NCBI GenBank assembly: GCA_951406725.2
Contig: OX597840.1
Location: 15,562,001 to 15,626,000, forward strand
Source of the DNA: Octopus vulgaris
Taxonomy: Eukaryota
Reading direction: 5' to 3'
Length of the DNA: 64,000 nt
Shown: piece by piece, positions 30,507 through 63,387 of the stretch
Layout of the letters: the number at the start of each line of letters is the position of its first letter
Numbering within the stretch: position 1 is the first letter of the stretch
Notes under the pieces: generated by a model
The model's database searches: none
Told to the model about the DNA's origin: nothing
Seen by the model: the letters and a program-made list of their open reading frames with translations, nothing else
Translations under genes and position numbers: made by a program

Positions 30507-30538
<32 letters not shown>

Positions 30539-31374: not shown

Positions 31375-31405
<31 letters not shown>

Positions 31406-31488: not shown

Positions 31489-31547
<59 letters not shown>

Positions 31548-31951: not shown

Positions 31952-32026
<75 letters not shown>

Positions 32027-33713: not shown

Positions 33714-33746
<33 letters not shown>

Positions 33747-35450: not shown

Positions 35451-35693
35451 TTTATTATTATTATTATTATTATTATTATCATCATCATCAAGGTGGTGAG
35501 CTAGCAGAATTGTTAGCATGCTGGTTAAAATGCTTAGTGGCAGTTCATCCATTCTGAGTTCAAAATTCCAAGGTTAACTTTGCCATTCATCCATTCAGGG
35601 TTGTTAAAATAAGTACCTTTTGAATACTGGGGTTGATGTGATTGACAAGCCCCCTAACTGAAAATTTCAGGCTTTGTGCCTATAGTAGAAAAG

Positions 35694-35750
<57 letters not shown>

Positions 35751-37595: not shown

Positions 37596-37626
<31 letters not shown>

Positions 37627-38370
37627 CAGCAGCAACAACCACCACTACCACCACATCCACCTCCTCAACTACTGCTACCACTACTACCACCACCACTACT
37701 ACTACTACTGTCATCACTACCACTGCCTCCACCATCACTGTCTCCACTTCTACCACCACCACCACTGCTGACACCCCCCTGCCATTTATCTTCTTAGGGA
37801 TCCCACATCTGTTCATTCTTCATGCAACAAATGCTGACATCAAATTTATGGAAAGAATTGTCTTACAGGTGATGTTTCATCATGCTAGAAATAACAGCTA
37901 AGTGTCTTCAATTTGCACTGTGTTTCATATAGAAATGAAGGACACTTAAAATATAATCTCTCTCAGTGATCTCATTATATGTTAATGTATCACTCCACCA
38001 CACTTTGTTTTCTCTCTTATCTACCCCCACCCCTACCCTGGGAAGAAATATGGAGACTTATCCCAGTGTAAGATATTGCTGTTATGAAGATGCTACATTG
38101 GCATTAATAAGTTAGAATGACTCATGAAATACCTTGTGGTATTTAGATAGGTCCCTTTATGTACCAAGTTGAAATATGGCCAGTATCAACTTTTGTCTTT
38201 CTTCCTTACTGGGTTGATAAAAATCAGTAAAAACGCATATGGACATTTCCATTAACATATGCGTGTGTGTGTATGTGTGTGCACACACACATGTGTGTGT
38301 AACAAATGTGTATGTATATATATATATATATATAAAAATTTATATATAGATAACAAATATATACATGTAT

Positions 38371-38419
<49 letters not shown>

Positions 38420-38514
38420 GATAATTATATATATACTTATATATAAATAACATATTTATACATATATACATATATATACACACACACATACATATATTTA
38501 TTTATGGATAACAA

Positions 38515-38602
<88 letters not shown>

Positions 38603-39316
38603 AGAGAGAGATAACAAATATATATAGATAACAAATACACACACATTCACACACACACACTGTTATAGTATTTTTACATAGATGTATTTACGTAATACGC
38701 ACACATATGTATGCATTTAATACATATGTACACAATTCTATACATACATTTACGTGTGTGTGTGTTTGAGTACATTTACATAAATATATACATACATACA
38801 CACTCTCAAATACACATGTAATGTATGTAGATGTGAGAGTAGCTATATATATATATATATACATGCGCAGATAACTTTGTGTGTGTGTGTTATGAATTAA
38901 TGGACATTAATTTAATATAAGCTATATTAAATTTGCAACTCTAAGAAGAGAGCTGCTTCCCTTCATTGATGTGTATCAGAGCATAAATCTCTGACATTGC
39001 CAAGTAAACAACTTAGCAGCTACATTGATGAATGTCTGCGAGGAGGGATGGACTTTCTATCTACACACCTTGTATTAGTGGGGCTAGAAGTGTAACATTT
39101 ACGATAATGATGATGATGATAATATACATACATACATACATATATATATATACGCATACATATTTACATGCATATACATACTTGTAGTTATATATATATA
39201 TATATACATACACACATGCATATATACATCTGTATGTATGTATTTATGTACATATGTGTATGCATATATATATATACATACACACACACACACATGCATA
39301 TATACATCTGTATTTA

Positions 39317-39352
<36 letters not shown>

Positions 39353-39936
39353 ATATATAGTGTGTGAGAGGTATTTGAAGATTATATTTGGTACTTTAAT
39401 AAAATAACTCTAATCTACCAAAAGCCAAATGTATTTTAATAAAAACTTCTGCACATGTTCTCGATAAGCTTTCTTATCAGAATATTCTATGAATCTACCT
39501 TCAGCTTCAATGACTGCTTCAACACGTGTAACTGGAGTTGTTGACATGCCTGCACTAAATGGTCTTTATTAATTTTAGATATCACAAGAACAGTGGTAAC
39601 CTTCACTGAAGCTGTGGTATTGTGAGGATGCTGATTAGCTTCTTTTTCAACAAATCTCCAAATGTTGGAGGCCAAAAGTTTGGTACCATATGGTCTGACA
39701 TCTTAGAATAGAAATATTATTATTTCTAAGTCTCTCTAAAGGAGACTACGGCAGCGGTACTGGATATTAATAGTTATCGCCAAGCTAATATGGCAGTCCA
39801 GAAATACAGGACAAATGCTGCCGTTGATTAGCTCCAAGAGGCCATCGTCTCTAGCTTGCTATGTGACACATGAACCTGTGTCCATTATAACCTTCAAACA
39901 AAGGAGGTCAGCTGCTTCCCCTTGCTGGTCAGGCAT

Positions 39937-39977
39937 CTGCAGACTAGTTTCAGAGTATTTGCCCCTTATCAATGCAG
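39937..39977 (-). ncRNA. Minimal type I hammerhead motif, U3-A8 core variant
   Basis: Reverse complement reads CTGCA TTGATAA GGGGC-aaat-ACTCT GAA AC-ta-GT C TGCAG. Confidence 0.68.
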
Positions 39978-42900
39978 AGCAGCCGAACCCAGCAGGCGTC
40001 ACTACTAACTGTCTGTTCAAAGGATTATTTACCTAAATTCAGTGGAATACATCCACTGGTTTTCAAAAATAGAAATATTATTATTTGTAAGTCTCTCTAA
40101 AGGAGACTACGGCAGCAGTACAGGATATTAATAGTTATTGCCAATCCATTCTTGGGTTACTGGTCTTTCTGAAATGGTGAGTCTTGTTGAAACACGTATG
40201 GTCTTCCACTGCACTCTTCATCCACCTATGGCTCAACAGCTGTCTCTAGCAACATTAATTCTACAACTCTGTGGAAAAACTTGAGGTGGCAAGACATGAC
40301 CTTTGTTGTTATTTCTAAACCCATCAGAGTTGCTGGAAACTTAGTGTGCAACACACTGGAGACATCAGAAAGAGCTATACACAACCATCTGTCCTGTCAC
40401 TTCTCCTGTTAGACAAGTGGTTCCTAAAATAGGGCATATGTCACACCGGAGGAACCTGAAAAAATTGCAGTGAGGCATAGGATTCAAATTTTTTTTTTTT
40501 TTTTTTTTTTTGTGGGACATGGAATTGTGAAATTTATTTGTTTCTTTATCATAAACGCACTTTTACTGTTCTCATTTCTTAATTAAAAAAAAAGTCACTG
40601 ATAGATTCTTTCATATTAGACAATTCATCATCATTTAGAATCTACTTTCCATGAGTTGGATGGTTTTGGCCTGAGCTGGCAAGGAGGACAGCTGCCCCAG
40701 GTTCCAGTCTGTTTTGGCTTGGTTTCTATGGTTGGATGCCCTTCCTAATGCCAACCACTCCACACACTGTGATGAAATATTAAAAATAAAGTTGTTTTTT
40801 TTTTGCCAACCACCAGTGGGATATATGTTTTTCGGAAAGTTAGTGTGGCCTGGGGGTGGAAAACAGATCAGGAAACACTTCTCTTGGACTTTCGATCTTG
40901 TTTGAAGTCTTCTCATCAGAGAAGAACTAAGGCATGTTATGTCTGTGAGGGTCTTTAAACTTTGTTAAGTAACCACTTGGCATGGATGAAATAGTTCTTC
41001 TAAGTCTTTGCAGACATGAATTGGCCTCTCCTCAATACATACGATTTGTACCAAATGTCATCATACACCACAGTTTAAATAATCCAAAGAGAAATCTGAA
41101 GTTTTTTGGTGATGACCTTCACTGGCTTTTCAAGATTCTACAGTTCTATATTTAAGAGATGAGGAATTATGTACATTATTTACATTCACCAGATATTTGT
41201 CTGCATCTTGTTTGTTGTTAACACAAACAAGATGAGGACAAATATCCGTTGAATGTAAATAATGTACTTTTCAAGATTATCATCAATAATGTTTTAAACC
41301 TATTGGGTCATCTGTGATATGTTCTGATTTCAAATTCCGCCAAGGTCGATTGTGCCTTTCATCCTTTCAGGGTCAATAAATTAAGTACCAGTTGCATACT
41401 GAAGTCAATCTAATCGACTGGCCCCCTCCCCCCAAAATTTCAGGCCTTGTGCCAAGAGTAGAAAAGAATATCTTTTTAGGATCCAAATGCTTTATTTTTC
41501 TACTTGTTTCAGTCATCAGACAGTGGCTGTGCTGGAGCACTGCCTAAAAGGGTTTTAGTCAAAGAAATCAAACCCCAGACTTATTCTTTGTAAGCCTAAT
41601 ACTTACTCTATCAGTCTCATTTGCCAAACCACTATGTTACAGAGACACAAATACACCAGCACTGGCTGTCAAGCAATGGTGGTGGCACAAGCATTGACAC
41701 AAAGACACACACACATCAATATATACATACATACATACATATATATGTGGCACTCCGTCGGTTACGACAACACAAGTTCCAGTTGATCCGATCAATGGAA
41801 CAGCCTGCTCGTGAAATTAATGTGCAAGTGGCTGAGAACTCCACAGACACGTGTAACCTTAACATAGTTCTCAGGGAGATTCAGCATGACACAGAGTGTG
41901 ACAAGGCTGGCGCTTTGAAATACAGGTACAACAGAAACAGGAAGAAAGAGTGAGAGAAAGCTGTGGTGAAAGAATACAGCAGAGTTCACCACTACCCCCT
42001 GCTGGAGCCTCGTAGAGCTTTAGGTGTTTTCACTCAATAAACACTCACAACGCCCGGTCTGGGAATCAAAACCGTGATTCTAAGACCGCGAGTCCCCTGC
42101 CCTAACCACTGGGCCATTGCGCCTCCACACATACATACATAAATACACATATACATATATAATTACTGTGGCCTTGTGATATTTTTATTAATGTCTCATT
42201 TATATCTATATTTTGACCAACCATAATGGGCTAATATTGGTAAAATGAGACATAATTATCGACATGGCCGAAACAGCTGTAAGATCCAATTTATACTTAT
42301 ATTTATATTTACTTGTATTTATATTCTTTTTTATATATATTCTAATTATTATACAACATTACCCTTTTATGTACACTTTTATGTGCACTGATTTGTTCTG
42401 CTTTTTATATTTAACCCTACAGTCTCTTATGTGGTGGTTTAATAAAGTATGTGATTGAGTATTATCTGGTAATTGATATTTGATTTAGATGTATTTCTCC
42501 ATTTTCTTATATATATATATATATATATATAAATATATATACATACATACATATATATATATATATACATACATACATATATAGGCGTAGGAGTGGCTGT
42601 GTGGTAAGTAGCTTGCTTAGGAACCACGTGGTTCCAGGTTCAGTCCCACTGGGTGACACCTTGGGCTTGTGTCTTCTACTAAAGCTTTGGGCCGACCAAA
42701 GCCTTATGAGTGGATTTAGTAGATGGAAACTGAAAGAAGCCCATCGTGTGTATATATGTGTGTGTGTGTGTGTGTGTATGTTTGTGTGTCTGTGTTTATC
42801 CCCCAATATCGCTTGACAACCGATGCTGGTATGTTTACGTCCCCGTAACTTAGTGGTTCAGCAAAAGATACCGATAGAATAAGTACTAGGGTTACAAAGA

Positions 42901-45220
42901 ATAAGTCCTGGGATTGATTTGCTCGACTAAAGGCAATGCTCCAGCATGGCTACAGTCAAGTGACTGAAACAAGTAAAAGAGATATATATTTATATATATA
43001 TATGATGGGCTTCTTTCAGTTTCCGTCTACCAAATCCACTCACAAGGCTTTGGTCGGCCCGAGGCTATAGCAGAAGACACTTGCCCAAGGTGTCAAGGAA
43101 TGGGACTAAACCACACAGCCAAACATTCGTGCTAGAGGTTTCCAGTTCCATCTGAGCATTGTATATAGAATATCTTGCTGTTTTTAGGGAGTTGGCAGTT
43201 TCTTAATTGCTGGGTTCCACTCATATGGCAACGATGATTGCATGTTTTATTTTTTTTGTTCCTTGTGTTAACATTTTATATTGTCATAGGGGGATCTGCT
43301 AGAGATGAAAAAACCCTTTTAATTGGTTTGAAGAGAGTAATATGCTGATAATTAAGTATCCACAAATATGCCTCGCACCCTGTATGTATATCATCATCAT
43401 CATCGTTATCATCATCATCACCTACCACCACCATCATCATTTTCGTCATTGGCATCAGCATTACCATCATAACCACCATCATCATCATCATCATTATCAT
43501 GATTTTCAGCATCATCACCATCATCATCACCTCTACCATCATCATCATCATCATCATCATCATTATCATATGCACAATTGTGCATATGTATGTGTGTGAG
43601 TGTATCTCCTTATGACTGAGTTGTGTGGTAAAGAGAGATTGATAAAATGAGAACCAGGCATAAAAAGTCAGCATTTTGATGTGAAAAACCGTCAAGGTGG
43701 CTCTCTTTCTCTGTTTTCTTCAAATATAACACATGCACACTCACACACACACACACACACACACTGGCACATACGCACTCTAATAAACGCACACATACAT
43801 ATGCACACACACTCAAGCAAACACTCCCATACACTCATACATGCACACACACATACACTGAAGAAACACAAACACTGGCACACACACACACACACTCAAA
43901 CAAACACTCCTACACACTCATTCACTCACACACACACACTCCCACACACTCATGCACATGCATACACACCGACACACACACACTCATTCATTCGCTCACA
44001 TGCATACACACACACATACACTCATATACGCACACACTGAAACAAACACAAACACTGACTCACACACACACAACACTCCCGCCCACTCATTCACTCACAC
44101 ACACACATACTTGTCTTGTATTTTATATTTGATATCATTTGATGAATCGTGTTTTCAGTCAATTTTTAAAAAACAGATTTCATGTCTGTCTCTAATAAAA
44201 AAGAACTTATCTATGGAAGCCTCTGGTTGTGTGTGTAAGTATACATGTTTTTATGTGTGTAGGTGTGTATATGTAAATGTGTGTGTATGTACATATATAT
44301 ATATATATATATATTTATATACACTCACATATATGTGTGTGTGTATATATATGTATAAACACACACATACACACACACATGTATATGTATGTATATACAC
44401 ATGTATACATATTTGTATATAAGGAGGGTTATACACTGACAATAACCAACATACGCATGTATGTACATATGTATGTATATGTATATAATATATATGTGTG
44501 TATATATATATATATAAGTATGTGTGTAATTGTGCACATGTGTGTGTGTGTGTGTGTGTGTATAAATTAAATATCCCAACCATAATTCCCGACAGCACCA
44601 CACCATTATCAACATCATCATCACCATAATGATAATAATAACAACAACAATAATAATGGTAATAAAATTTGTATCGTATCAAAAGAGAATTTCTTTAGCA
44701 AATACTATTATTATCTTTATCGCAATTTGCCATTGTTGTTTTGGAGATAGAAATGTGAGTGAATGTGGATGTAAGTGTGTATGTTTTGAAGTTCTATCTT
44801 TAAACAACATTTATATGAGTATATATATATGTATGTATGACTATATGTATGCATATATGTATATATGTACTATGTTTGTATGAGTGTATGTATGAGTGTA
44901 TGTATGTGTGCATGTATGTATGAATGTATGTGTGTGTGTATGTATGGATGTGTATATGTATACACATATACAAACACGTTTTATATATCTATATGTGTGG
45001 GTATCTGTGAAAGAGTTTGAGTACATGTATCTCCATATACATCTATAACCCTGCATACTTACACACATAGATGTCTGTGCATGTACATTCATACATATAT
45101 ACATATATACACACACATGCATAGGCAAATATATATGTATACATACACACACCTATATATGTATGCATATATACATGCATATGTATTTATGCACACACAC
45201 ACATATATATATATTTATAC

Positions 45221-45320
45221 ATTTTGAAATATTTTAACTGATGAAGATATTACGTAATGGATGCATTTCTTACTATATGCTACACACACCCGAAACATAT
45301 GTATTAAATAATTTCAAAAT
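45221..45320 (+). ncRNA. Hammerhead-like motif with decayed stem II
   Basis: ATTTTGAAATATTTTAA CTGATGA ...(weak stem II)... GAA AC-atat-GT A TTAAATAATTTCAAAAT. Confidence 0.55.
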
Positions 45321-45929
45321 ACCACTATTTGGTTTGATTTCTACCACTGCTCCAGGCTGACCAGTGTCTTCTCAGTAATTCTTTAGCAGACAGTAACTGT
45401 GCAAAACCTCATAATATATACATATACTCTGTGTGTATCTATGTGTATGTTGGACTACTGTCCGTGCAACATCTATATTCCTTCCGGTGCTTGTTAAATC
45501 TTATGTCCCTGCCATAAGGCTTTGCTTCCACACACGCCAGCTTAATTTAATTTGTCCTTAGTCGAAAGACACCTGTTGTTATGTCCTGTTATTTGTATCT
45601 GTGTAACATTTCTCTGGGGTTTTTTTTCGTCCTTTTATACATTGTACATACTCTGCTTTCTTCCAAGGAATGTAATGCTCTTAGCTTATTCTTTCCTTGG
45701 GGCTGGCCAGATTGGAGCAATCTTGAGTATAACCAGCCAAAATTGCAAAGATATTCTGGAACTTGACTGAGAATAGAAAACTCAGAATGATCCGTCCTTG
45801 CTTTCCTTGTATCGTTTGTCAGGATATTTTGTTGTCCCTTTTTGTTTCATTTAACTGTCTGGATGTTTTGTGTTTTCTTGTCCCATTTTTGTATTTTTTA
45901 TATATAAAATATAGCGTACATACACCTTC

Positions 45930-45972
<43 letters not shown>

Positions 45973-46232
45973 GAATACATCCGGTCATGAAGGACTTAGC
46001 CCAATGTATGACTCATCAGATTCTAATGGTTAAGAACATGTAGTTCTTCAAACAAAAGTAGAAATCCGTTATGGTTAGTTATTTAGTATGTAAACAGAGA
46101 ATAAGGAATCCAAGAGGATGGATTATCACCCTTAAACCAGTCCATGTGGGCCAAAAAGGGGAACGGGAGACTGCCCTTAGATTGCTTTTAGCTAGTAAGG
46201 ACATTTTTGGATATATGTATATATATATATAT

Positions 46233-46925
46233 ATATTGTTGCTATTATGTCAAAGTGTCGTATGTCCAAATTTGGCCAAATGCGTCCTTTTGAATGTTTA
46301 GTTTTGCATGCAATAACCGCTTCTTTTGGTTAAACTATTGTATATCCAGCTTCTTTAGATGCCAAGATATCAAGTATTGTCAATGTGTAGTACAACAGTT
46401 TTGCTATGGAATGGTGAAACTATTTTATCATTTTCTGGAAAAGTAATATTTTGGACCTATGACACTTTTGAATAACAGCAATGATATATACATACTTATT
46501 TATATATATGTATATATTCATATAAATATCATTGCTATTATGTTAAACTGGCACACGTCCAAATTTGGCTAAATGCATTTTTTTCAATATTCAATTTTGT
46601 TTGCGATAGCCAGTTCTTTTGGTCAAACTATCGTATCTCCAGCTGCTTCAGATGCCAAGTTATGAAAAATTGTCAAAGTGTAGTACAATGACTTAGCATT
46701 TTTCAAAAGTATAGTAAGTCCCACATACAACAGCTTTGCAAGAATATTTCTGCCTGAAAATATCATACAGGCATGGAGTTACAATTTTATGCCCCCAACA
46801 AAGTATTACTGTTAAGCTGTATCTGTTGCTAATGTAAAAAGAAATGGAAGGGTGAAATTATTTTTATGTTTTCTGAAAAAGCAGCGTTTTGGACTTAAGA
46901 CATGTTTGCATAATAGCAACAATAT
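46233..46925. mobile_element. Two adjacent related MITE-like copies (~46233-46487 and ~46526-46925)
   Basis: Ends ATTGTTGCTATTATG... / ...CATAATAGCAACAAT in a TA-repeat context. Both copies share an internal TCCAAATTTGGC...AGATGCCAAG sequence. Confidence 0.55.
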
Positions 46926-49900
46926 ATATGTATATATATATATATATATATATACAAGAAGAAAATGGATGTAAATAACAAGGAGAAACTTGTCGTTTTA
47001 GCTGGTATACTTTTAATTTAATCAATTAACAAAGAAGAAGATGGCATTATGTATGTGTGTGTGTGTGTCTTCTACTATAACCTCGGGCCAACCAAAACCT
47101 TGTGAGTGGATTTGATAGAAACTGAAAGAAGCCCATCGTATATATGTATATATGTGTATGTTAACCACCATTATCAATTGGTAGAAGCGTATATTGGTAC
47201 CTGCTTCGATTATGTATCCCCATCAGCCCAAAAATTTTGGAAACTAGACTAATATATATGTATATATACAGACACAGCTGTGTAGTAAGAAGCTTGCTCC
47301 CCAACCACATGGTTTCAGGTTCAGTCCCACTGTGTGGCACCTTGGCAAGTGTTTTTTTATTATAGCCTCAGACTGACCAAAGCCTTGTGAGTGGATTTGG
47401 TTGATGGAAACTGAAAGAAGCCTGTCATATATATGTGTGTGTTTGTGTTTGTTCCCCACCATTGTTTGACAACCAGTTTTGGTCTCTTTGTGTCCCTGTA
47501 ACTTAGCAGTTTGGCAAAAGAGTTGATTAAAATATGGACAAGTCTTTATAAACTGATAAGTACGGGGGGTGGGCGAATTCATTTGAACTAAAATTCCTCA
47601 AGGTGGTGCCGCAGCATGGCCACAATCAAATAACTAAAACAAATAAGAGATAAAAATAAAATAAAAAGATATATATAGGTGCAGGCTTGGCTGGGTAGTA
47701 AGAAGCTTCCTTCCCACCACATGGTTCCAGGTTCAGTCCCACTGCATGGCATCTTGGCAAGTGTCTTCTACTATAGTTCAACCAAAGCCTTGTCAGAGGA
47801 TTTGGTAAACGGAAACTGAAAGAAGCCTATCATATATATACACATATATATATTATATGTATGTGTTTGTGTGTGTCTATGTTTGTCCCCCACCAACATC
47901 GCTTGACAACTGATGTCAGTGTATTTACATCCCCATAACTTAGAAGTTCAGCAAAAGAGACTGATAGAATAAGTACTAGGCTTACAAAGAATAAGTACTG
48001 GGGTTAATTTTTTTTTTTTTTTGCAACTAAAGGCAGTGCTCCAGCATGGCCACATTCAAATGACTGAAACAAGTAAAAGAATACCCACCCACACACACAT
48101 ATATATATACATACACATATATACATATACACACATGTTCATGAAGTAAAACAAAAAACAAGCAAAAATTTTTTAAATAATTACAAAATTACAAAATTGT
48201 AAAATAGAAATAAAGTAAAAATACTTTCAAAAAAAAGATGTTGAGGCAATAGAAAAAATAAAAGAACAAAAATGAAACCAGATGAAGTGACCGATGATAA
48301 GAAAGAAATGTGGAGAGATGGAGGAGGGAAGCTGCACAGTCGGGGCCCCAATGAAACTAATAAAAATCTCAATATAACTATAGCAAAAGGAAAATGTTCA
48401 GCAAGTGAAGAGGAGGTTGATGTGTGAGAGAGGCTGTTAATGAGTGGAAGTAGGAAGAGGAGGTGTAGAGGAGAGCAACATTAAAGTTAGATATCGTGCT
48501 GGAGGACCATCATCTCGCAGATATTGTTTGGGTGGGTGTTGATGTCTTTTTATAGATTTGTGATGGGCAGAAGCGGGTGGATTTGGTTTGTTTTGGGAGT
48601 GGGTTTACTTTTTTTTGACCGGTTCTGCCAAGTTTTTTTTACAAGTGCAGCAGTGGTGGTGCTGGTGCTGGTGGCTGTGGTGACTAGCGATGTGATAGTG
48701 AGGTGGTAATAGTGGCCCTGGTGATGGGTGTAGCATCAGCAGTGGTGGTGGTGGTGGTGGTGGTAGTAGTGGTGGTGATGGCGGCAGCGGTGGTGGTGAA
48801 GAAGTTATGGCAATGTTGATGTACTGGTATTATATATGGTGGTGGTAGTTGTGGAGTTGGTGTCTGCAGTGGTGGTTGTGATGATACCAGTAGTGGTAGT
48901 GGTGGTAGTGGTAGTAGTGATGGTGGGGGTGATGATGATGATGGTGATGTGGGTTGTTTTTTAAGTTTATTATTCTTTTTGCATTATTTTCTCAGGACAT
49001 AAAATACCAAAATAATTGTTTCTAATTTAGGAACAATGCTTTCAGGGGTTTTTAAGGGGAGGGGTTTATTAGTACCATCAATGCCCCTCTTCCCCACTCC
49101 CACCATACAAGAAGGATGAAAGACAAAGTTGGCCTCAGCAGAGTTCGAACTCAGAACCCAATGAACCAGTAGAAATATCACAGGACATTTTTCCCTGATG
49201 CTCTGATGATTCAACCACATTTGGAGACAGAAATTCTCAAATTTGAGGGGGAAGGTAGAGTTGATGCTACTGATCCCTGAGTCTAATTTCCAGGCCAGGT
49301 GTGTGGGGCATATTTTGGAAATTGGGTGTATGTATGCACTTGTGTGCACATGTGTACATATGTACGTGTGCACATGTGTACATGTGTGTGTGTGTGTGTG
49401 TTCCACATAAAATATGTTTTACATATTTTATAAGTTATATGGCTTGGTGGTTGAAGTGCTGAACACGTGGTCATTAACATATGGTTTCAATTCCCAGAAC
49501 AAGCAAACAACATATTAAGCCCTTAAGCAAAGTACTACTCTTCATGCAGCAGCTGGGGAGTTTAGCTCAGTGAAAGACCGGTGACCTATCCCAGAGAGAG
49601 CCCTGTGCTCGCAGTTATTTAAGTCCACCCAACACCAACACCCTTCACTTCTAATTTGTTGCAACACCCAGACCCCTACACACATGGACCAATTTTCCTA
49701 ATCCTTCTGCCTTCACGCAGCTTCAATCCCCAGTAATTCCATCTCCCACCCATGTACCCACAACTTACTGACCCACAAACATCATTCTCACCGGTCTTGG
49801 AGCATTTACAAGAAATCAAGGCTACTGCTCTTCATTAAAAATTCTCCAAGAAACAATTCCATGTGTGAGAAACCGAGGGAACCTACATATGGTCATTTGA

Positions 49901-50244
49901 TCAGTCAACCCCCATCAAAGAACCCAATCCCCCCTATTTGCCATCATGAAAACAAAAATAGCTATTGGATGTTATTGACATTTTCCTTAATATTCAATCA
50001 TTGCCAACAAAGGCTGGATGAAAGCCTCTGCATCTCATTTCTCTACATTGGTTGTAGGCCCCACTGTACATATTAGTTAATGACAGCTTAGATACTGTGG
50101 CCTCTATGGTCAACCTGGAAGATCAAGCTCACAATATGTGAAAGATTATATGGGATGGCCATAAGTGGAATCTGGAACACTTTTCATTACAGGTCTACTG
50201 AACCATGGCTGCTCTGGAGATTAAACAACAGCCACTACATATTA

Positions 50245-50962
50245 GAGTGGACACTTTGGTCCACATCTACTCACTGGAGTGGACAGGTTGGTTTACATCT
50301 ATTCAGTGGATTGGTTAGTGTGATCCAAATCTACACATTGGAGTGGACAGTTTGATCTACACACTGGAGTGGACAGTTTGATCCACATCTACACATTGGA
50401 GTGGACTGTTTGATCCACATCTATACGCTACAGTGGACAGGTTGATCCAAATCTACACATTGGAGTGGACAGTTTGATCCACATTTACACATTGGAGTGG
50501 ACTGTTTGATCCACATCTACACATTGGAGTGGACAGTTTGATCCACATCTACACATTGGAGTGGACAGTTTGATCCACATCTACACATTGGAGTGGACAG
50601 TTTGATCCACATCTACACATTGGAGTGGACTGTTTGATCCACATCTACACATTGGAGTGGACAGTTTGATCCACATCTATACATTGGAGTGGACAGTTTG
50701 ATCCACATCTACACACTACAGTGGACAGGTTGATCCACATCTACACATTGGAGTGGACAGTTTGATCCACATCTACACATTGGAGTGGACAGTTTGATCC
50801 ACATCTATACATTGGAGTGGACAGTTTGATCCACATCTACACATTGGAGTGGACAGTTTGATCCACATCTACACACTAGAGTGGACTGTTTGGTCCAAAT
50901 CTACACACTGGAGTAAGCCCTTTGGTTCACATCTACACACTGGGGTGGGCAGTTCAGTCCAC
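50245..50962. repeat. 32-bp minisatellite, ~22 units
   Basis: Unit GGAGTGGACAGTTTGATCCACATCTACACATT; homogeneous centre, decayed edges. Confidence 0.95.
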
Positions 50963-51416
50963 TATATTATAAAACAATAAAGACCAAAGAGCCAAAAAGA
51001 AGCTTGTTTTGATTATAAAGAAAAATAGTAAAAAAACATGATTGGTTTGGTTCAAAATCAGACAGACAGACAGAGTGTGAGATCATAGAATTTACTGAAG
51101 AGAATGGACAACAAGTTGTAAAAGAGTCCGATTCTCAAGACATGGTAATTGTGAAATGTCAAAATGAAGAAGTAGACTCATTGGTGCTGACGAGAGTTGG
51201 GTTAAGAACGTTTAATTAACTTTCAAAATACCTCTTATCATGAACCACCATTTTATACTATTGCCTCTCCCTCCACCCACGTCTCTCTCTCTTCCTCTCT
51301 CTCCCTCTCTCTCCCTCTCTCTTTTTCTCTCTCTGACCTTTGACATTTCAATAACTCTTAATGAGCTTTAAGAATTGTTTCTGTCTGTCTCTTTCATTCT
51401 TTCTCTCTCCTCTGTT

Positions 51417-51467
<51 letters not shown>

Positions 51468-51914
51468 CACTTCCTAAATTGATCTAGCTATCTCCCTCTC
51501 ACAAACCCTTCCTTGCCTCATCTACTCTCATTCACCCACACACACATACACACACCCTCTCTACATCATTTTTCTCTCCACCCCTCTCTACCCCGAACCA
51601 CTCACATCACTTATTCCCATTATTGTTAAGTACAGATATTGAACACCATCCATCTTGTCTCTCAGTTACACAAGAGTCAGTAGATTCCCTGTTGGACATG
51701 TGTAGTCCCTACTTTAAATAATATTAGGAAGTTTATCAAACCATGGCTGTATGGTAAGAAGCTTGTTTCCCAACCACATGTTTCTGGGTTCAATCCCACT
51801 GTGTGGCACCATGAGCAAGTGTCTTGGGGAAATTTCAAACCTGGGTTCTCATTCCTTAAGGTATTTTTCGATGTTGTTTTTATTATTATTATTATTATTA
51901 TGATTATTATTAAT

Positions 51915-51945
<31 letters not shown>

Positions 51946-51947
<2 letters not shown>

Positions 51948-52492
51948 GAGTGAGAGAGCAGTGCATGCCATCAAAGTGACACTGGGGTAAAATATACAAA
52001 TCCCAGTATACCCATCATGACTAACCATCTGAGAAGGGTACACCAAGCACATGCATCACAACCATATGTGCGCGACATGGTGATATATCAAGATAAACAG
52101 AGCATGACCTTGCAGGTGGGGCTCAGAATTTTTTTCAGCTCGAGTAACCCATCCCGCTCAAAAGGTCCCTGTATAAGGATTGTTTAAAGATGTTGAATGA
52201 ACCACCCATGTTTCCAAAGGTGAATTATCCAAACCCCAAAGAATTCCTCTCAACATACGGCTATGATGCTCCCCCCACTACTTCTACTTGCGGTCAGAGA
52301 TGCATATATCATCAGCCACTAAGGGACATGCTCAACTGGTTAAGGTCAAACAGCTGACAAGCAAATCTGTGGTATTGAGCAGAATATTTGCTGTAGCCCA
52401 TCTTTTATACCAAGACAAAACAATGTACATGATAACACTTCCAATCAGTTAAGATCAGAAGCCATGAGAGCCACTGTGTACTGCATCAGGGC

Positions 52493-52495
<3 letters not shown>
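51946..52495 (-). mobile_element. Non-autonomous (TAA)n-associated element; relatives at ~23752-24138, ~36460-36870 and ~63784-64000
   Basis: Shared TGAGTGAGAGAGCAGTGCATGCCATCAAAGTGACACTGGGG... body abutting (TTA)n tracts. Its other end is shared with the RLE element at 35198-35450. Confidence 0.7.
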
Positions 52496-52527
<32 letters not shown>

Positions 52528-52671
52528 TCACTGCCTGAAATTGAACTCGGATTCTTGGACTTAGTAGCCTGCACTCTTAACCATTACGCTATATGCCCGA
52601 ATAATAATAATAATAATGATAACATCGAAAAATACCTTAGGAATGAGAACCCAGGTTCAAAATTTCCCCAA

Positions 52672-52717
52672 GACACCTGAAGAAGGCTGGAGAGTATATC
52701 AGGCGAAACGTTGTGTT
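52672..52717 (+). ncRNA. Hammerhead-like motif with ultra-short stem III
   Basis: GACAC CTGAAGA AGGCTGG-agagtata-TCAGGC GAAACGTT GTGTT. Confidence 0.5.
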
Positions 52718-53194
52718 AACAACAAACAAGATGACAAGCTGGCAGAATCATTAGCACGCCAGTCAAAATGCTTAGCAGTATTTCTTCTGTCTTTACGTTC
52801 TGGGTTCAAATTCTGCCAAAGTTGACTTTCATCCCTTTCATCCTTTTGGGGTTGATAAATTAAGTACCTGTCATGTGCTGGAGTCGATGTGATTGATTGT
52901 CCCCATCCTCACAAAAATCCAAGCCTTGTGTTTATTGTAGAAGGGATCATTATTATTATTATTATTCATATTCTTAAAGGTGGCAAACTGGCAGAATCGT
53001 TAGCACGTCAGGCAAAATTCTTAGTGGTGTCTCGTTTGTCTCTATGTTCTGAGTTAAAATACTGCTAAGGCCGACTTTATCTTTCATCCTTTCACAGTCA
53101 ATGAAATGAGTACCAGTTGTGTACTGGGTCGATCTAATCAATTTACTCTCTCTACCTCTCCAAACTTGCTGGCCTTGTGCCAAAGTTTAAGACC

Positions 53195-53780
<586 letters not shown>

Positions 53781-54341
53781 AACACTGATTCAACATTCTT
53801 TCATTAGTGTTGTTTATTTACTGATTTGCTGTTGCTTCAGTTTGGTTTTTAAGTTGGTTGCCAGGTGATGGGGATGGGATCTTACAAAAGGACAAAACTA
53901 GAAATGAGAAAGAAAAATGACAAGGGAGAGAGATAGATAGATTGATAAAGAAGGAAAGAGAGAGAGAGAGGAAAAGAGAGGGAGATGTAGAAAGAAAATG
54001 AGGAAGGAAAGAAGGAAGAAAGAAAATGTAAGACATGCTCACACAGACACACACACTGTAACAACTACAAATATACACATGTACAAACACACACGTACAA
54101 AGACACACACACCATAACAACTACAACAGCAACCGACACTGCTACAATAGATTCATATTATTTCCTTCACACACACACACATACTCATGCACAAACACAC
54201 ATACAAACACAAACACATGCACACACTTACACAGACACACACACAAACAACATAACAACAATATAAACCCACAATAATTCCACAATATTATTTAGTGAAG
54301 AATTTACAATTCCCTTTCTTCTTTCTCTTATTTTCCCTTTG

Positions 54342-54705
54342 TTATTACCTCCGCCTTAGCAAAGACAGAGGTATTGTTTTTAGTTGTATTTGTTTGTTTG
54401 TCCATGGACAAGATATCTCAAGAACCGCTGCATGGATTCTGATGAAACTATCAGAGATGTTTGGCCTCATGACTGGCACAAACTGATTAGATTTTGGGAT
54501 TGATCTGATACTGGAAAAGGATTTTGGATTATTTTTCTTGTTTTTTACTTAATTTTTGAGAGCAGTCGGGTACATTTTTAGTATTCTTGTTAGTGAGTGC
54601 AGCCAGGTTTATTTCAGATTTTCTCATTTTAAGAATCATCTCTGGCTAATCTTTGAGAGGACGTTGGTGTTGCCTTGGCAGAGGTTTGTGCTCTCTGAGT
54701 TCTTT
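54342..54705 (+). mobile_element. HINE / non-autonomous Helentron-like element
   Basis: TTATTACCTCCGCC start, (GTTT)n tract, subterminal inverted repeat TTGGCAGAGGT and a short 3' stem-like tail, inserted in T-rich DNA. Confidence 0.6.
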
Positions 54706-55412
54706 CTATTTCTCCTTTCTTCAGTTTCCTCACTTTCTGACAAATTTTCTAACAATAATTACAATTATTAATTTTCTTTTCCTTTTTCTCCTCCTTTTTG
54801 TAAATAGCATTTATTTTCCAGAATGCCATGTCATATACAGAATTATAATTTACAATATTTTACTAAATATAAATTCATTTATTTATTTATTTAGTCTCTT
54901 GTAAATGCAATGACATTTGCCAAACAAACATATTTATTATATTTTACCATTTTTCCTAAATAATGTTAGATTTTACAATTTTTATGTTTTAATGCTATGT
55001 GATGTGTAACAACTGTTTATAACCATTGTTCCAATGATATCTATATATATATATATATGTCTATGTTTGTGTGTCTGTGTTTGTCCCCCAACAAGTGTCT
55101 TCTACTATAGCCTTGGGCCGACCAAAGCCTTGTGAGTGGATTTGGTAGATGGAAACTGAAAGAAGCCCGTCGTATATATATATATTTCTTTACTACCCAC
55201 AAGGGGCTAAACACAGAAGGGACAACCAAGGACAAACAAAGGGATTAAGTTGATTACATCGGCCCCAGTGCGTAACTGATACTTAATTTATCGACCCCAA
55301 ATAGATGAAAGGCAAAGTCGACCTCGGCGGAATTTGAACTCAGAATGTAAGAACAAACAAAATACAGCTACGCATTTCGCCCGGTGTGCTAACGTTTCTG
55401 CCAGCTCACCTG

Positions 55413-55509
<97 letters not shown>

Positions 55510-57424
55510 GTATGTATATGTGTGTGTGTGTGTGTGTATGTTCGTGTGTCTGTGTTTGTTCCCCCAACATCGCTTGACAACTGATGCTGGTATGTTTACG
55601 TCTCTGTAACTTAGCGGTTCGGCAAAAAGAGACCAATGGAATAAGTACTAGGCTTACAAAGAATAAGTCCTGGGGTAAATTTTCTCGACTAAAGACGGTG
55701 CTCCAGATGGCAACAGTCAAAGGACTGAAACAAGAAAAAGAGTAAAAGAGTAAAGAGTATATGTTCCCCACCTGGACAGGACGCAGGATAAGTAATCGCA
55801 GGGTGTACTCATGTACAGCTGAGTGGACTGAAGCAATGTGAAGAGAAGTGTTTTGCTCAAGAACACATGTCACCCGGTCCAGGGGTTGAAACTGCAATCT
55901 TAAGATCATAAATCTTAACACCCTAACCACTAAGCCATGTGCCTCCACTATTGTAGAAATGGTGTATAGTGTAGTGTTGCAGTAATATTCTGCTCTAGAC
56001 ACAAGGCCTGAAATTATGGGGGAAGGGGCCAGTCGATTAGATCGACCCTGGTATGCAGCCGGTACTTAATTTATTGACCCCCAAAAGGATGAAAGGCAAA
56101 GTTGACCTCAGTGGAATTTGAACTCAGAACGTAAAGACAGCCAAAATACTGCTAAGCATTCTGCCTGGCGTGCTAACGATTCTTATTTCTTTACTGCCCA
56201 CAAGGAGCTACACACAGAGGGGACAAACAAGGACAGATAAACGGATTAAGTCGATTATATCGAACCCAGTGCATAGCTGGTACTTATTTAATCAACCCCA
56301 AAAGGATGAAAGGCAAAGTCAGCCTCGGTGGAATTTGAACTCAGAATGTTGCAGTAGACAATTCTACCAACTCGCCACCTTAGCATCATAATAATATTCT
56401 TTTCTACACTAGACACAAGGCCCAAAATTTTTGGGGAGGGGCTGGTCAATTAGATCAAACCAGTACACAACTGGTACTTAATTTATCGACAAGCTTTCTT
56501 CTGTTTCCATCTACGAAATCCACTCGCAAGGCTTTGATCAGCCTGAAACAATAGTAGCAGACACTTGCCCAAGGTGCATGCAGTGGGACTGAACCCAGAA
56601 CCATGTGGTTGGGAAGCAAGTTTCTTACCACACAGCCATGCCTGCTCCTATAACATAAAAAGGAAAGAAGTCAAATTAAGTGTATTTAGAATTTGAAACC
56701 CCAACAACAAACTTTAAATACTGCAAATCACTCCTAACACCACAACTCCATCAGCTTCCAATCTCTGGGAAATCAGGGATTTTTTAGTTTTTTTCTCTCT
56801 TTAAACCAAATCGTTATGAATTCAAGTACTAAACTTTATTTTCCACATTTCAATTTTCCATGCGGAAATTTAATCCATTTTATCTCCTGTGTGGATGTAA
56901 TTTATTTGTGTGTCACTTCCAGCTGTTTTATTATTAAAACTAAAACTGTTTCTGTCATTTTATCCTCATCTTCTCCATTATCATCATCATCATAATTATA
57001 ATTATTTTAATGACAATTACGAAAATGATTGTTTATTAGCCTCGTCAGCATTTTTGTTATTAAGGGTGATGGATTACCATTGTTGAGGTTGGTGGCACGG
57101 TGTAAGGGGGGATATCAGTTTAAGAAGTTCACTAGGTATAGGAGTGGCTGTGTGGTAAGTAAGTTGCTTACCAACCACATGGTTCCAGGTTCAGTCCCAC
57201 TGCGTAGCACCTTGCGCAAGTGTCTTCTACTATAGCTTCCGGCTGACCAAAGCCTTGTGAGTGGATTTGGTAGATGGAAACTGAAAGAAGCCTGTCATAT
57301 ATATGTGTATATATAATTTTAATATTTCTATTATTGAAAACAAGTGGATGTATTCCACTGAAACTAGGTAAATAGATTCTTCGAACGGGGACAGTCAGTA
57401 GCGACACCTGCTGGGTCTGACTAC

Positions 57425-57467
57425 GCTGCATTGATAAAGGGTAAATACCCTGAAACATGTCTGCAGC
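57425..57467 (+). ncRNA. Minimal type I hammerhead motif, U3-A8 core variant
   Basis: GCTGCA TTGATAA AGGGT-aaat-ACCCT GAA AC-at-GT C TGCAGC. Confidence 0.72.
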
Positions 57468-57636
57468 TTTCTGACTGGCAGGATGAAGCGGCTGACCTCC
57501 CCTGTTTGAAGGTTTATAATGGACGCAGGTTGTGTGTCATATAGCTAGCTTGAGGCGGTGGCCTCTTGGAGCTAATCAGCGACAGCTTTAGTCTTATATT
57601 TATAAGACTGCCATATAAGTATGGCGATAACTATTA

Positions 57637-57680
<44 letters not shown>

Positions 57681-57705
57681 GTATGTATGTATGTATGTAT
57701 GTACG

Positions 57706-57758
<53 letters not shown>

Positions 57759-58607
57759 TTGTGTGTGTGTTTGTGTGTCTGTGTTTGTTCCTCCCCCCCC
57801 CCCAACATCGCTTGACAACCGATGCTGGTGTGTTTACATCACCGTAACTTAGTGGTTCGGCAAAAGAGACTGATAGAATAAGTACTAGGCTTACAAAGAA
57901 TAAGTCCTGGGATCGATTTGTTCGACTAAAGGCGGTGCTCCAGCATAGCCACAGTCAAATGACTGAAACAAGTAAAAGAGAGAGTAAAAAGTATTCCAGT
58001 CATGTAGTTTGGGGTTCAAACTCACTGTACAGCTTCTGGGGAAAGTTGTCTGTTGTCCTAACCTCAAATAAAACAAAGTCTTCTCAGTGAAGTTTGATAA
58101 ATGGGAATTGTGTAGAAGGTCCTCAGATGGTCGTTCAAAGGGGTCTTTTGAATGAACAGCACATGGAATTTATGTCTCCACACTATCCACTTGTAATAAC
58201 AAAATATGAACTTCTATCGGAACCTACATACCATGGACAAGAAGCATTTCTACCCATTCTACACAGCACTTTCCTTGGATAATGGAACTGCAACTGCAAC
58301 ATCCTACATATATTTTTATTCTCTTATTTCCCTTTATACTTCATATATCCATCCTTTTCCAAAGTAACTCCTTATACTGAACTCAGCTATTTCCCTCTAA
58401 TTAACTCTCTCGTATCGTTTCTGATGAAGGGATATCCCTAATATCCCAGAAACAGCTTTACAAATGTCCTAGAAATTTCACACTGCCTTTGCTTTGTTGT
58501 CTCACTTTATTTAATATATAAATGCGAAGAACCAAGAGTCTAAGTACAGTCCTCCCATAGCACTTACATAGCCTTACCTGCCATTTTGGGTCTTTTGGAT
58601 ACCAATA

Positions 58608-58640
<33 letters not shown>

Positions 58641-58764
58641 CCTCACTCAGAGATTTATCATTGCTTGTTTACACTTTTATGATATCAGTGACTTTTCGTG
58701 ACTGGAAAAAGGATATATATTTGCAAAGGGAACCTACTTTCCATTGACAACCGGTGATTGTCAC

Positions 58765-59834
58765 GTGCGTCGTTGAAGTGTTGTTTTTTGTGGAGTTGGA
58801 GTTTATGATATTGTGAGTTGCAGAAATTGTTATTAGAAATTTTATTGTTGAAAGTACTATTGTAGTTGAATTTTGAAAATTATTTTGTAGCTACCCTTTG
58901 TGGGTATGCAAACAAGTTACGCCCAGGCAGCAGGCAAAAGCCTGTCGGCCGACATGTTGCAGCTGAAAGAATTGAGAAGGAAGGTTTGAAGAAATATTTT
59001 GAAAATTTCAAGAAGGAGGGTGATTGCTTACAGATCACACTGCCGGAGGAAGACGCAGAAAAAGCGAGGAAAAAGATTATTGTATATAGAACGTGGAGTG
59101 TGGCCAACAAGAAAATAGAAGTGGAAAAAGTTGAAGAAAAAAACGGCAGAAAGAAAGAGAACAAGGGTGGAGTCACCACCAAAAAGCCCAAAGAAAAGTA
59201 AAGTAGAAAATGAAGGAAGAAAGACAACAGCAAGGGGAAAAAGTACAGAGATTCAAACCCAGAAACTGAAGACAATGACAGGAAGTAAAGAAGGTAAAAC
59301 CAGAAAAGAGAAATGCGAAGAATGGATGAGGAAGGTGATGGAGAGAGTAAATCATGTAAAACAAACAGGACGACCTATGGGAGAGAATGTAAGAAGGTTA
59401 ATTTTGTATGAAAAATATGGAGATTAAAAAAAGATTAACAAAAACAAAAGGACTGATACGAGTGAAATTAGAAAACGACATGTTCGAACCAAGCGCTAGA
59501 GCGGTGTTAATAGAAAAAGAAAAAATAGACAAATTGGCAGAGACATTTAAAGGAAAGATTAAAGTAAGTAAAACAGACGTTCGCTATGATAGCCTGCCCA
59601 ACGTGATTGGGATGGAGGATGTTATCAAACATATATCTGATGGATAAGTGGAACAGTTGCAAAATGTATAAATGAAACTGGGAGCTTGGGGGACTCGTAA
59701 GCCATTCCATTTCCCATTACACATAACTCATTTCATATTCATTATTTGTTTTATGTACCCCAAATTTTGTATTGTTTTGTATGTAAATTGTAATGTCCTT
59801 TTTATATTCAGGCTACATGCCTATAATAAAGAGA
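58765..59834 (+). mobile_element. 1070-bp insertion with 16-bp target-site duplication and broken K/E-rich ORF
   Basis: AACCGGTGATTGTCAC occurs at both 58749-58764 and 59835-59850. AATAAA at 59825. Overlapping ORF pieces span 58866-59647. Confidence 0.75.
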
Positions 59835-59847
59835 AACCGGTGATTGT

Positions 59848-59893
59848 CACACACTGATGATGGGTCAATACTCAGAAACTCGAGTCCGTGTGT
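59848..59893 (+). ncRNA. Minimal type I hammerhead motif
   Basis: CACACA CTGATGA TGGGT-caat-ACTCA GAA AC-tcga-GT C CGTGTG; A.C mismatch next to the cleavage site. Confidence 0.7.
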
Positions 59894-60848
59894 ATCATAG
59901 GTTGAAGATGGGAAGGATGGCTTCCCTTTGCAATTATTGATAGGGCACAGAAGGTGTGTCAATAGCCAGCTGGTGGAGGTGTCCTCCTGGGGCTACAAGC
60001 TACAGTAGCATCCACACTTAGGGGTTAGCTACATTTAAGTGGCAAATATACTTCATGGTATATATATATATATATATATTCCCATCGTCATCATCATTAT
60101 TATTTAATGTCCACTCTGCCATGTTTATATGGGTCAAACATAATTTGTTGAGATGGATTTTCTATGGCAGGGTGCCCATCCTATTGCCAACCCTCATCTT
60201 TTTCAAGCAAGGTAATATTTTCCCAATGCTAGCCATAATTTCACAGAAGATTAGAAATGGAGACTACTACTGGTACGGCATTGAATCTCACTTAGGACTA
60301 TCTTGTGATGTCAAGGCAAGGAGAGAGTAACACACTTGCACACACAAGCATGCTCAATATAATAGGTTTCTTTCAGTTTCCATCTACCAAATCTATTCAC
60401 AAAGTTTTCATTGGTCTATAGCTATAATGAAAAAAAGAAAACACTTACCCTGGGTACTTAACTGAAAGATTTTATTGTGTCTTCAATTTCATTCTATGGT
60501 GAAAATTATTAAAATTATAACACTCATTATGTCTTTCACATTGTTCCATACATTCAACCTTTTGATACCAAATTTCTGTTGAGATACACAGCCTTTTCAT
60601 TTCCAATAAATTTTTTTTTTAATATAAAAATTTATTAAAATAACTTTTTCATTATTAAGTTGGAAACAAATTAACATGAAATATAGGTGCAGGAGTGGCT
60701 GTGTGGTAAGTAGCTTGGTTACCAACTACATGGTTCCAGGTTCAGTCCCTCTGCATGGCACCTTAGGCAAGTATCTTCTGCTATAGCCTCGGGCTGACCA
60801 AAACCTTGTGAGTCGATTTGGTAGACGGAAACTGAAAGAAGCCCATCG

Positions 60849-60879
<31 letters not shown>

Positions 60880-61285
60880 GTGTATGTATGTATGCATGCA
60901 TGCATGCATGCATGCATGTATTTACTTGTTTCAGTCCTTTGACTGCAGCCATGCTGGAGCACCACCTTTAGTCGAGCAAATCAACCCCAGTACTTATTCT
61001 ATCGGTCTCTTTTGCCAAACTGCTAAGTTATGGTGAAGTAAACACACCACCATCGGTTGTCAAGCGATGTTGGAGGGACAAACACAGACACACAAACATA
61101 TACACACACCTACATACATATATACAATGGGCTTCTTTCAGTTTCCGTCTACCAAATCCACTCACAAGGCTTTGGTCAGCTCAAGGCTATAGTAGAAGTC
61201 ACTTGCCCAAGATGCCACGCAGTGAGACTGAACCTTGAACCATGTGGTTACTTACCACAAGCTACTTACCACACCCACTCCTGCA

Positions 61286-61328
<43 letters not shown>

Positions 61329-62022
61329 GTATGTATATATGTATGTGTTTGTGTGTGTGTGTTTATCACCCCATCGCATGACAACCGATGCTGGTATGTT
61401 TATGACCCTGTAACTTAGCGGTTCAGCAAAAGAGACTGATAGAATAAGTACTAGGCTAACAAAGAATAAACCCTGGGGTCGATTTGTTTGACTAAAGGCG
61501 GTGCTCCAGTATGGCCGCAATCAAATGACTGAAACAAGTAAAAAGAATGAAATTTTGAATGGAGTGTTTTAATTTAGAATACTTTAAGGCAGGACATTTC
61601 TATCCTAGAACCAGGGGTGAGGGCAGTCTCAGGAAAGGCTGGGAACAAAAGGGTTAACCCTTTTGTTACCCTATTTCTGTTGAAATACATGTTATTAATC
61701 TGGTGTTTGGAAAATAAATTAACAAGAAATTTTAATGGAATGTGTTAAATTTACATCACTTCAATACAGAAAGTCTGTCTGAAAGGAGTAGAGACAGTCC
61801 CGGATTATATTCAGTTTGAAATACTCTGACTTTGTCTTAATATATTTCAAAAATAGTAAAAGAACTGAAGATAATCTCGTCGTTAATTAAGCTGTGTTAT
61901 AAGGAACAAATTAACATGAAATTTTTATGGGAGGTTTTTATTTAGATCACATTAATAGAGGGCATGGATTGGATGGTTTGACATGTTCCAATGAGCTGCA
62001 GAGCATCATCAAGCTTTAATAC

Positions 62023-62375
62023 CTGCTTCGACATGGTTTCTACAGCTGGATGCCCTCCCTAATGCCAACCACTTTACAGAAAGGCCTGGGTGCTTTTCAT
62101 GTGGCAACAGCACTGGCCAGGTCTGCTTCGACATGGTTTCTACAGCTGGATGCCCTCCCTAATGCCAACCACTTTACAGAAAGGCCTGGGTGCTTTTCAT
62201 GTGGCAACAGCACTGGCCAGGTCTGCTTCGACATGGTTTCTACAGCTGGATGCCCTCCCTAATGCCAACCACTTTACAGAAAGGCCTGGGTGCTTTTCAT
62301 GTGGCAACAGCACTGGCCAGGTCTGCTTTGGCATGGTTTCTACAGCTGGATGCCCTTCCTAATGCCAACCTCTTT
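62023..62375. repeat. 100-bp tandem repeat, ~3.5 copies
   Basis: Units start at 62023, 62123, 62223 and 62323; the first three appear identical. Confidence 0.95.
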
Positions 62376-63387
62376 GCAGTGAGTATCAGGTGTGTTTTTT
62401 TTGTGATACCAACACTAGTGAGGTCACCAAGAAACACACAGGACAAGATTCCTCCACTGAATGGGATGTAATACAGGGAGAGGGCAGAAGAGGGTGATGG
62501 AAGGGAGATTCAGCAGTTATTTCTAGTTGATCAAAAAGCCAAATTGAAGCTCTATCACCGACTTATAAGTTGTTGTAGAAACAATGTCATAATATACCAA
62601 GGAGTACATTATCCAAAGTAACCTGTTTTTAAGGGAATAGACTATATCATTTGTGGCTGATTTGGTTGCTCTTTCTAGCATCCCAAGAGACTGCATGCAC
62701 TCTAATTTGTTGGCTCCTATATGTGGGTGGGTGTATGTATGTGTGCATGGATGTGTATTCTTTTATTCTTTTGCTTGTTTCAGTCATTTGACTGTGGCCA
62801 TGCTGGAGCATCACCTTAAAGGGTTTTAGTCAAATAAATCAACCCTTTTAAGCTTTCTACCTATTCTGTTGGGCTCTTTTGCCAAACTGCTAAGTTACAA
62901 GAGCATAAACATACCAGCACCAGTTGTCAAACAGTGTTGGCGGAGACAAACACTGACACACACACACACATGATGGGCTTCTTTCAGTTTCCATCAACCA
63001 AATCCACTCGTAAGTCTTTGGTTAACCTAAGGCTATAGTGGAAGACACTTGCCCAAGGTGCCATGCAGTGGGACTGAACCCAGAACCATGTGATTGGGAG
63101 GCAAGCTTCTTACCACACAGCCAAACCTGTACCTTATATATGTATGTGTATATGTGTTTGTATATATATATATATATTGCTCTTGCACGTGCAGCTGTGC
63201 ATGTACATGTGTGTGTGTATGTGCATATAACTCTGTGCACTTGCATGTGTGTGTGTGTGCATCTGTGCCTTCATATGGTAAAAGTTTACAAAATAATTTT
63301 GTTTTTATGTATTTCTCTAATAATCCCTGTATATTTCTGTTTTTCTTTTCTTTCTATATCCTACCCTTAACCCTCAACACTTCACAG

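Follow-up and report, generated by a model that had tools for sequence, protein, structure and literature searches.

Two repeat copies in the genome of Octopus vulgaris most likely represent subfamilies A and B of a dispersed, non-coding family of non-LTR retrozymes, as judged from their sequences, and all four C/U x G/A versions of the 3-8 pair of the hammerhead core, mismatches included, are found in related subfamilies that have spread. The latter is the main addition made here; the retrozyme element type, a natural U3-A8 core and mobilisation by Penelope elements, as a proposal, were already known. The analysis concerned a window of 64,000 nucleotides (contig OX597840.1, positions 15,562,001 to 15,626,000 of the forward strand), and positions below are those of the window. 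The features needed for what follows are:

57314..57638, plus strand: copy 1, subfamily A; 5'-truncated, 0.89 unit, ending at site S1 and followed by a (TA)n tract
57419..57471, plus strand: type I hammerhead of copy 1, with distal helix I, loop 1 UAC/U, 6-bp helix I, U3-A8, 4-bp helix II and palindromic helix III
57425-57430, plus strand: 5' strand of helix I, copy 1, GCTGCA
57431..57437, plus strand: core of copy 1, TTGATAA, corresponding to U3 U4 G5 A6 U7 A8 A9
57438-57451, plus strand: helix II of copy 1, AGGG/CCCT, then GAA
57455-57460, plus strand: helix III palindrome of copy 1, ACATGT
57461, plus strand: C17 of copy 1; cleavage predicted 3' of 57461 (GUC) from hammerhead numbering
57462-57467, plus strand: 3' strand of helix I, copy 1, TGCAGC
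39707..40144, minus strand: copy 2, subfamily B; 1.2 units, ending at the second fixed 3' end, S2
39936..39978, minus strand: hammerhead of copy 2, with N3 at 39972, A8 at 39967, C17 at 39942 and helix III ACTAGT
10205..63387, plus strand: GT-AG intron of 53 kb splitting a C2 domain (Pfam C2 positions 2-57 and 59-102; in-frame junctions)
~10036-10204 and 63388-63558, plus strand: the two exons of this C2 domain, flanking the 53-kb intron

The window copies and their repeat unit

Both copies lie inside the 53-kb intron, copy 1 in sense and copy 2 in antisense orientation. The gene with the split C2 domain is presumably synaptotagmin-like (the C2 assignment is from Pfam), and contigs of two runs enter its second C2 exon at the acceptor (63386). 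Alignment of the two copies revealed 82.8% identity over 320 bp (E 1e-87). Copy 1 carried two private changes relative to subfamily A, C to U at the first base of loop 2 (57442) and G to U at a base of distal helix I. Copy 2 had a terminal redundancy of 77 bp, with 40144-40068 repeated as 39783-39707 at 94.8% identity, and a single C-to-U change in helix II that leaves a G·U pair. A relaxed type I scan of both window strands gave three matches, namely the two copies and a loose one at 32774 (minus strand); this last is hammerhead-like, with a canonical core and a long helix II, and may be due to chance.

Several other repeats were observed in the window. Copy 1 is flanked by very abundant SINE-like repeats (~57140-57296 and 57790-57985), and its insertion site is the TA tail of the upstream one. 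On the minus strand, a mariner-type transposase remnant (Pfam Transposase_1) was identified at 17910-18521 and a LINE-type endonuclease remnant (Pfam Exo_endo_phos, under the curated cut-off) at 6108-6677. Rfam alignments also revealed near-perfect inverted repeats (hairpins) at 25524-25612 and 29036-29207, which are probably small non-autonomous DNA elements.

The original prediction described a ~300-bp repeat with a U3-A8 core, a 5-bp stem I and a palindromic stem III of differing sequence. The core (TTGATAA) and the different helix III palindromes (ACATGT versus ACTAGT) were read directly in both copies. Stem I indeed pairs, at a length of 6 bp rather than 5 bp, and shows a compensatory G-C to U-A change between copies 1 and 2; a 3x1 loop separates it from a long distal helix, and helix II comprises 4 bp with a CAAAUA loop. 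The repeat was likewise found, with a unit of 361-365 bp in place of ~300 bp. The expectation that canonical-core searches would miss the family was borne out for Rfam, where 57330-57630 gave no match to any hammerhead model at E <= 10, and no hammerhead was present among the best 150 of 347 Rfam matches for the whole window.

The extent of the unit was determined by comparison of flanks. The 48 bp located 3' of the 317-bp match also stand 5' of it, which makes the unit a circularly permuted monomer, 365 bp long in subfamily A and 361 bp in subfamily B (350-365 nt in the family). It contains no ORF, neighbouring units abut head to tail without an intervening ORF, and the hammerhead spacing of 350-365 nt in 17 tandem monomers or pairs gives one type I hammerhead per unit. 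DNA searches of the 2.8 Gb genome yielded ~2,700 first-look candidates spread over many chromosomes. A census of 187 loci with 223 unique anchors was resolved into 13 subfamilies. The group M2, which has two copies, and the majority of single anchors were not included, and 21 old singles were combined manually into subfamily C. These 13 subfamilies were 43-93% identical, with homology along the entire unit. The element is covered by contigs from runs that are presumably RNA, which are uninformative on ends, strand, circles or level.

Predicted monomer circles were self-paired over 58-67% of bases, with z-scores of -1.6 to -7.7 for the circular folds (20 shuffles each); the minimum-energy fold of copy 2 was not the hammerhead (z -0.7). 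Within a monomer, the 6-nt helix III would form at most one pair and a tetraloop, and the ribozyme is therefore predicted to act as a dimer, as for axolotl HHR_Amex1. The octopus family resembles the metazoan non-LTR retrozymes described in the available text of Cervera and de la Pena (2020, PMC7229834), both being non-coding, 170-400 nt long and below 50% GC, with a self-paired predicted circle and a type I hammerhead with a 6-bp helix I and a 4-bp helix II. The weak palindromic helix III is like that of HHR_Amex1, some octopus subfamilies share with HHR_Amex2 a U·U at the helix II base, and mussel retrozyme units measure 350-390 bp (same source). Unlike the retrozymes described there, the octopus copies are mostly dispersed, with 1-2 units and inverted arms instead of long arrays, and non-canonical cores dominate in a family known here from genomic copies. 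Cephalopods are unmentioned in the main text of that paper, the supplement of which may list cephalopod or variant-core retrozymes. Among the papers listed for octopus and hammerhead ribozymes, none concerned retrozymes by title or abstract start.

Insertion footprint and mobility

Analysis of 133 loci from six subfamily groups revealed that in five of the groups the 3' ends form two clusters, ~175-183 and 218-238 nt past the cut site; the 3' ends of subfamily M (7 loci) were scattered. The copies thus stop at either of two fixed positions within the unit, which are separated by 40-60 nt and lie roughly half a unit away from the cut site. Eighty of the 133 loci exceeded one unit, 68 ran into TA-rich DNA and 66 had an inverted 5' neighbour. 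Two-armed insertions used one end site per arm. With S1 and S2 windows that were defined after inspection of the 3'-end clusters, 54 of the 70 rows with two arms combined S1 with S2, corresponding to 52 of 68 distinct insertions, as three rows are one insertion; S1+S1 or S2+S2 occurred in none, and one arm ended elsewhere in 16 rows. Among arms chosen by their 3' half, 29 of 30 extended at least 10 nt beyond the cut site. Since the arms run past this site, the template would have been circular or uncut. A linear template that had been cut should make 5' ends accumulate at the cleavage site, and this was rejected (1 of 30 within 6 nt). Target duplications of ~7-11 bp were read by eye in non-microsatellite flanks (for example L054, L114 and L185). 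The footprint is Penelope-like, with two internal 3' ends, an inverted 5' copy and AT-rich targets.

Penelope-like elements (PLEs) were proposed as the retrozyme carrier in 2020 (PMC7229834), and a 2026 preprint by Li, Clavereau and Pollet (10.64898/2026.07.22.740005) presents animal retrozymes as non-autonomous PLE derivatives on the basis of co-occurrence and pLTR phylogeny, mainly in vertebrates; passages on octopus, cephalopods or core variants were not found in its available text. The Anolis Poseidon PLE protein has two internal RT start sites (the 'tail') and cuts two strands, and its insertion in vitro is hammerhead-independent (Frangieh 2024, PMC11167929). As far as the available text of that study and of Craig (2021, PMC8557442) describes PLE insertion, the octopus family shares with it partially tandem copies, 5' copies in inverted orientation, targets that are AT-rich or (TA)n and, by prediction, the cutting and extension of both strands. 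Unlike these PLEs, the octopus unit has no ORF, its tail is 40-60 nt, and a single start site per arm is visible in genomic copies.

We consider it quite probable that the family is a non-LTR retrozyme whose dimeric RNA is predicted to self-cleave and which is likely re-inserted by a Penelope-like reverse transcriptase. In this model, pairing of two palindromic helices III would allow multimeric transcripts of the head-to-tail, ORF-free units to be cut at GUC, and the resulting monomers would be closed to circles. A GIY-YIG/RT enzyme would then cut both strands of AT-rich DNA and, with a circular or uncleaved RNA as template, start synthesis at both of the ends.

The window also contains a broken Penelope-like element (26750-28300, minus strand), with an RT fragment bearing YVDD and a GIY-YIG domain after a cysteine linker. 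Its GIY-YIG PLE family has ~10,000 first-look relatives in the genome, the best of them 75-89% identical, with broken ORFs of which the longest is 665 aa. As to an autonomous partner, no hammerhead was detected up to 700 nt downstream of the endonuclease in 12 of 32 loci of this PLE family, and no end shared between it and the retrozyme was seen among the BLAST matches listed.

Conservation of the hammerhead fold

The family ribozyme has the three helices of a type I hammerhead, with G5, A6, A9, G12, A13, A14, A15.1-U16.1 and H17 conserved. In the majority sequences of the 13 subfamilies, proximal helix I was paired in 78 of 78 cells, and helix I pairing was absent from every search pattern. 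All helices together were paired in 163 of 169 cells, compared with a permutation mean of 122.9 and a maximum of 135. When real copies were compared, both sides had changed in 13 of 15 pairs and 0 of 500 shuffles scored as high; such shuffle tests are inflated by the relatedness of subfamilies, and the real-copy score is lowered by the subfamily C row, which MAFFT set two columns off and which was kept in. Helix III was fully self-complementary in 11 of 13 subfamilies, with one unpaired centre base in 2, and all four possible AC-NN-GT palindromes occurred, as did 8-nt ones. Conservation of helix I and of the helix III palindromes, as opposed to random decay, had been anticipated, and both are indeed kept through compensatory changes. 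Of the two loops that would make the tertiary contact, loop 1 was URC/U in 12 of 13 subfamilies and was not part of the selection, and the CAAAUA loop 2 was in the search patterns; other loops exist in the core-independent sample described below.

Invariance of the core across the 13 subfamilies is partly built into the search patterns and to that extent circular. A core-independent sample was obtained with a motif outside the ribozyme, which gave 4986 matches, from which 30 anchors were drawn. Twelve of the 30 still had a core, and G5, A6, A9, GAAA, GUC and a palindromic helix III were present in 12 of 12. Position 4 was C in 4 of these 12 (two insertions), showing that U4C cores amplified as well. 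Nested among U·G relatives is a retrozyme subfamily, represented by L266/L268 and L278/L279, in which loop 2 has 7 nt and the core reads CCGAYGA (U4C, C3-G8). In the amplified subfamilies E, E2, F and M (for example L117, L172 and L158), the 10.1-11.1 pair, which is usually conserved, was U·U or C·A. Taken together, these comparisons of genomic copies make selection on the hammerhead fold well supported, and we infer from them catalysis by the family ribozyme.

The 3-8 core pair

The 3-8 state was U-A in six of the 13 subfamilies, C-G in three, U·G in three (E, J and K) and C·A in one (H), with no statistical coupling of the two positions (Fisher p = 0.27); the pair is Watson-Crick in both window copies and in 9 of 13 subfamilies. 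A single pattern gave 1301 matches (control 24), comprising 88 U·G, 175 C3 and, by subtraction, 1038 U-A, a U-A share of 80% that is valid only for U4 cores with a CAAAUA loop. By hand count, about half of the 88 U·G matches belonged to one subfamily, and 27 of the first 100 C3 rows were C·A. The figure of 1301 was rejected as a family size, the core-independent motif of one clade alone giving 4986. The 12 cores of the core-independent sample were divided into 5 U-A, 3 U·G and 4 C-G. U3-A8 is the majority core of the family, as had been predicted, with 324 exact matches versus 5 C3-G8 with the same helix II. These 5 were rejected as revertants of subfamily A, being members of the older subfamily C (11.7% diverged). 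Transversion pairs (G-C and A-U; R3/Y8) were also rejected (11 matches versus control 5, none with family stems), and the 3-8 changes were transitions only.

When positions 3 and 8 were masked, subfamily H (C·A) formed one clade (11 of 11 insertions, support 100), which includes a tandem trimer. Subfamilies J (U·G; 7 of 7, support 92) and F (C-G; 10 of 10, support 97) each formed one clade as well; E, K and G were not single clades. Seven changes of 3-8 state were needed for 63 copies. Copies diverged from their subfamily majority by a mean of 0.7% in H (C·A), 0.9% in E (U·G), 1.8% in A, 5.3% in B and 11.7% in C (C-G), so that mismatched 3-8 cores are found in the two least diverged subfamilies sampled; these ages are rough, as exact-pattern sampling favours young copies. 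C-G and U-A interchange in nature here, via mismatched states that spread too. In the proposed model, the 3-8 pair would be only weakly selected and would shift one transition at a time, with U·G and C·A as intermediates that remain mobile, and U3-A8 would simply be the state fixed in the A/B/D lineage. A CpG at 7-8 (where N7 is C) may bias G8 towards A8.

The covariation put forward in the original prediction was thus found among relatives, where C-G and U-A interchange, and not between the two window copies, both of which are U3-A8; its strict form is weakened by the amplification of U·G and C·A subfamilies. A natural U3-A8 core is not new, such hammerheads having been published by Perreault (2011, PMC3088659) and, in ~1,300 Schistosoma PLE motifs, by Cervera (2014, PMC4209133; Cercyon min-HHRs). 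According to the available text of these papers, the core is the same and dimeric action is predicted for both. Unlike the published examples, the octopus hammerhead is of the canonical, presumed loop-loop type and lies in a non-autonomous unit, with U·G, C·A and U4C relatives alongside. The PLE min-HHR has a helix II of 7-8 bp, a helix I of 4-5 bp and a poorly defined loop 1 (PMC4209133, available text); the octopus ribozyme differs from it in its 6-bp helix I, 4-bp helix II and defined loop 1. Amplified U·G or C·A subfamilies were not found in the literature searched, and Lunse (2017) and the supplement of PMC7229834, outside that search, may cover them.

A different and rather unlikely account of these data is that cleavage is dispensable for spread, the fold being kept as an RNA structure or protein-binding element, with the PLE enzyme copying uncleaved multimers and any Y3/R8 core amplifying. 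The low divergence of the C·A (0.7%) and U·G (0.9%) subfamilies, the uncoupled positions 3 and 8 (p = 0.27) with their 7 state changes in 63 copies, and the failure of copies to stop at the cut site are all consistent with it, and the available text of PMC11167929 reports that hammerhead mutants had no effect on PAc insertion in vitro and that uncut RNA was the main template. However, G5, A6, A9, G12-A15.1 and GUC were retained in 12 of 12 cores of the core-independent sample and R3/Y8 cores were near chance (11 versus control 5). Helix III has also remained palindromic across at least eight sequences, an observation difficult to account for unless catalysis is dimeric.

We regard as improbable the stricter proposal that U3-A8 is a selected compensatory pair and that mismatched cores are dead copies or post-insertion decay. 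It would fit the 1038 U-A among 1301 matches of one pattern and the Watson-Crick pair of 9 in 13 subfamilies; G8 lies within a CpG if N7 is C, so decay can yield A8, and several C·A copies of subfamily B share one flank and look like duplicates of one insertion. The single clade of the C·A subfamily H (11 of 11, support 100) with its tandem trimer, that of the U·G subfamily J (7 of 7, support 92) and the origin of about half of the 88 U·G matches in one subfamily argue against it, and for subfamilies H and J it is largely refuted. It is very improbable that extensive 5' truncation of an autonomous Penelope-like element left the repeat as its solo pseudo-LTR, for although the insertion footprint is the same as that of PLEs and U3-A8 is known from PLE pLTRs, the units stand head to tail with no RT and GIY-YIG ORF between pLTRs and the architecture is canonical, not of the minimal PLE type.

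We tentatively suggest that the family could be a natural evolution experiment on the 3-8 tertiary pair, with repeated C-G/U-A crossing via U·G and C·A states that amplify and of which some are among the youngest. A dimeric hammerhead stabilised by its loops would then either tolerate a broken pair in vivo, or slower cleavage would be favoured, sparing circular template for twin-primed Penelope copying.

Canonical-core searches undercount animal retrozymes in this case, with no Rfam match to the element and U-A cores making up 1038 of the 1301 matches of one pattern. The family offers near-identical natural scaffolds with C-G, U-A, U·G, C·A and U4C cores, and thus a test bed for compensatory change via intermediates. 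It could likewise serve to test whether the mobility of retrozymes or Penelope elements depends on cleavage by the hammerhead.
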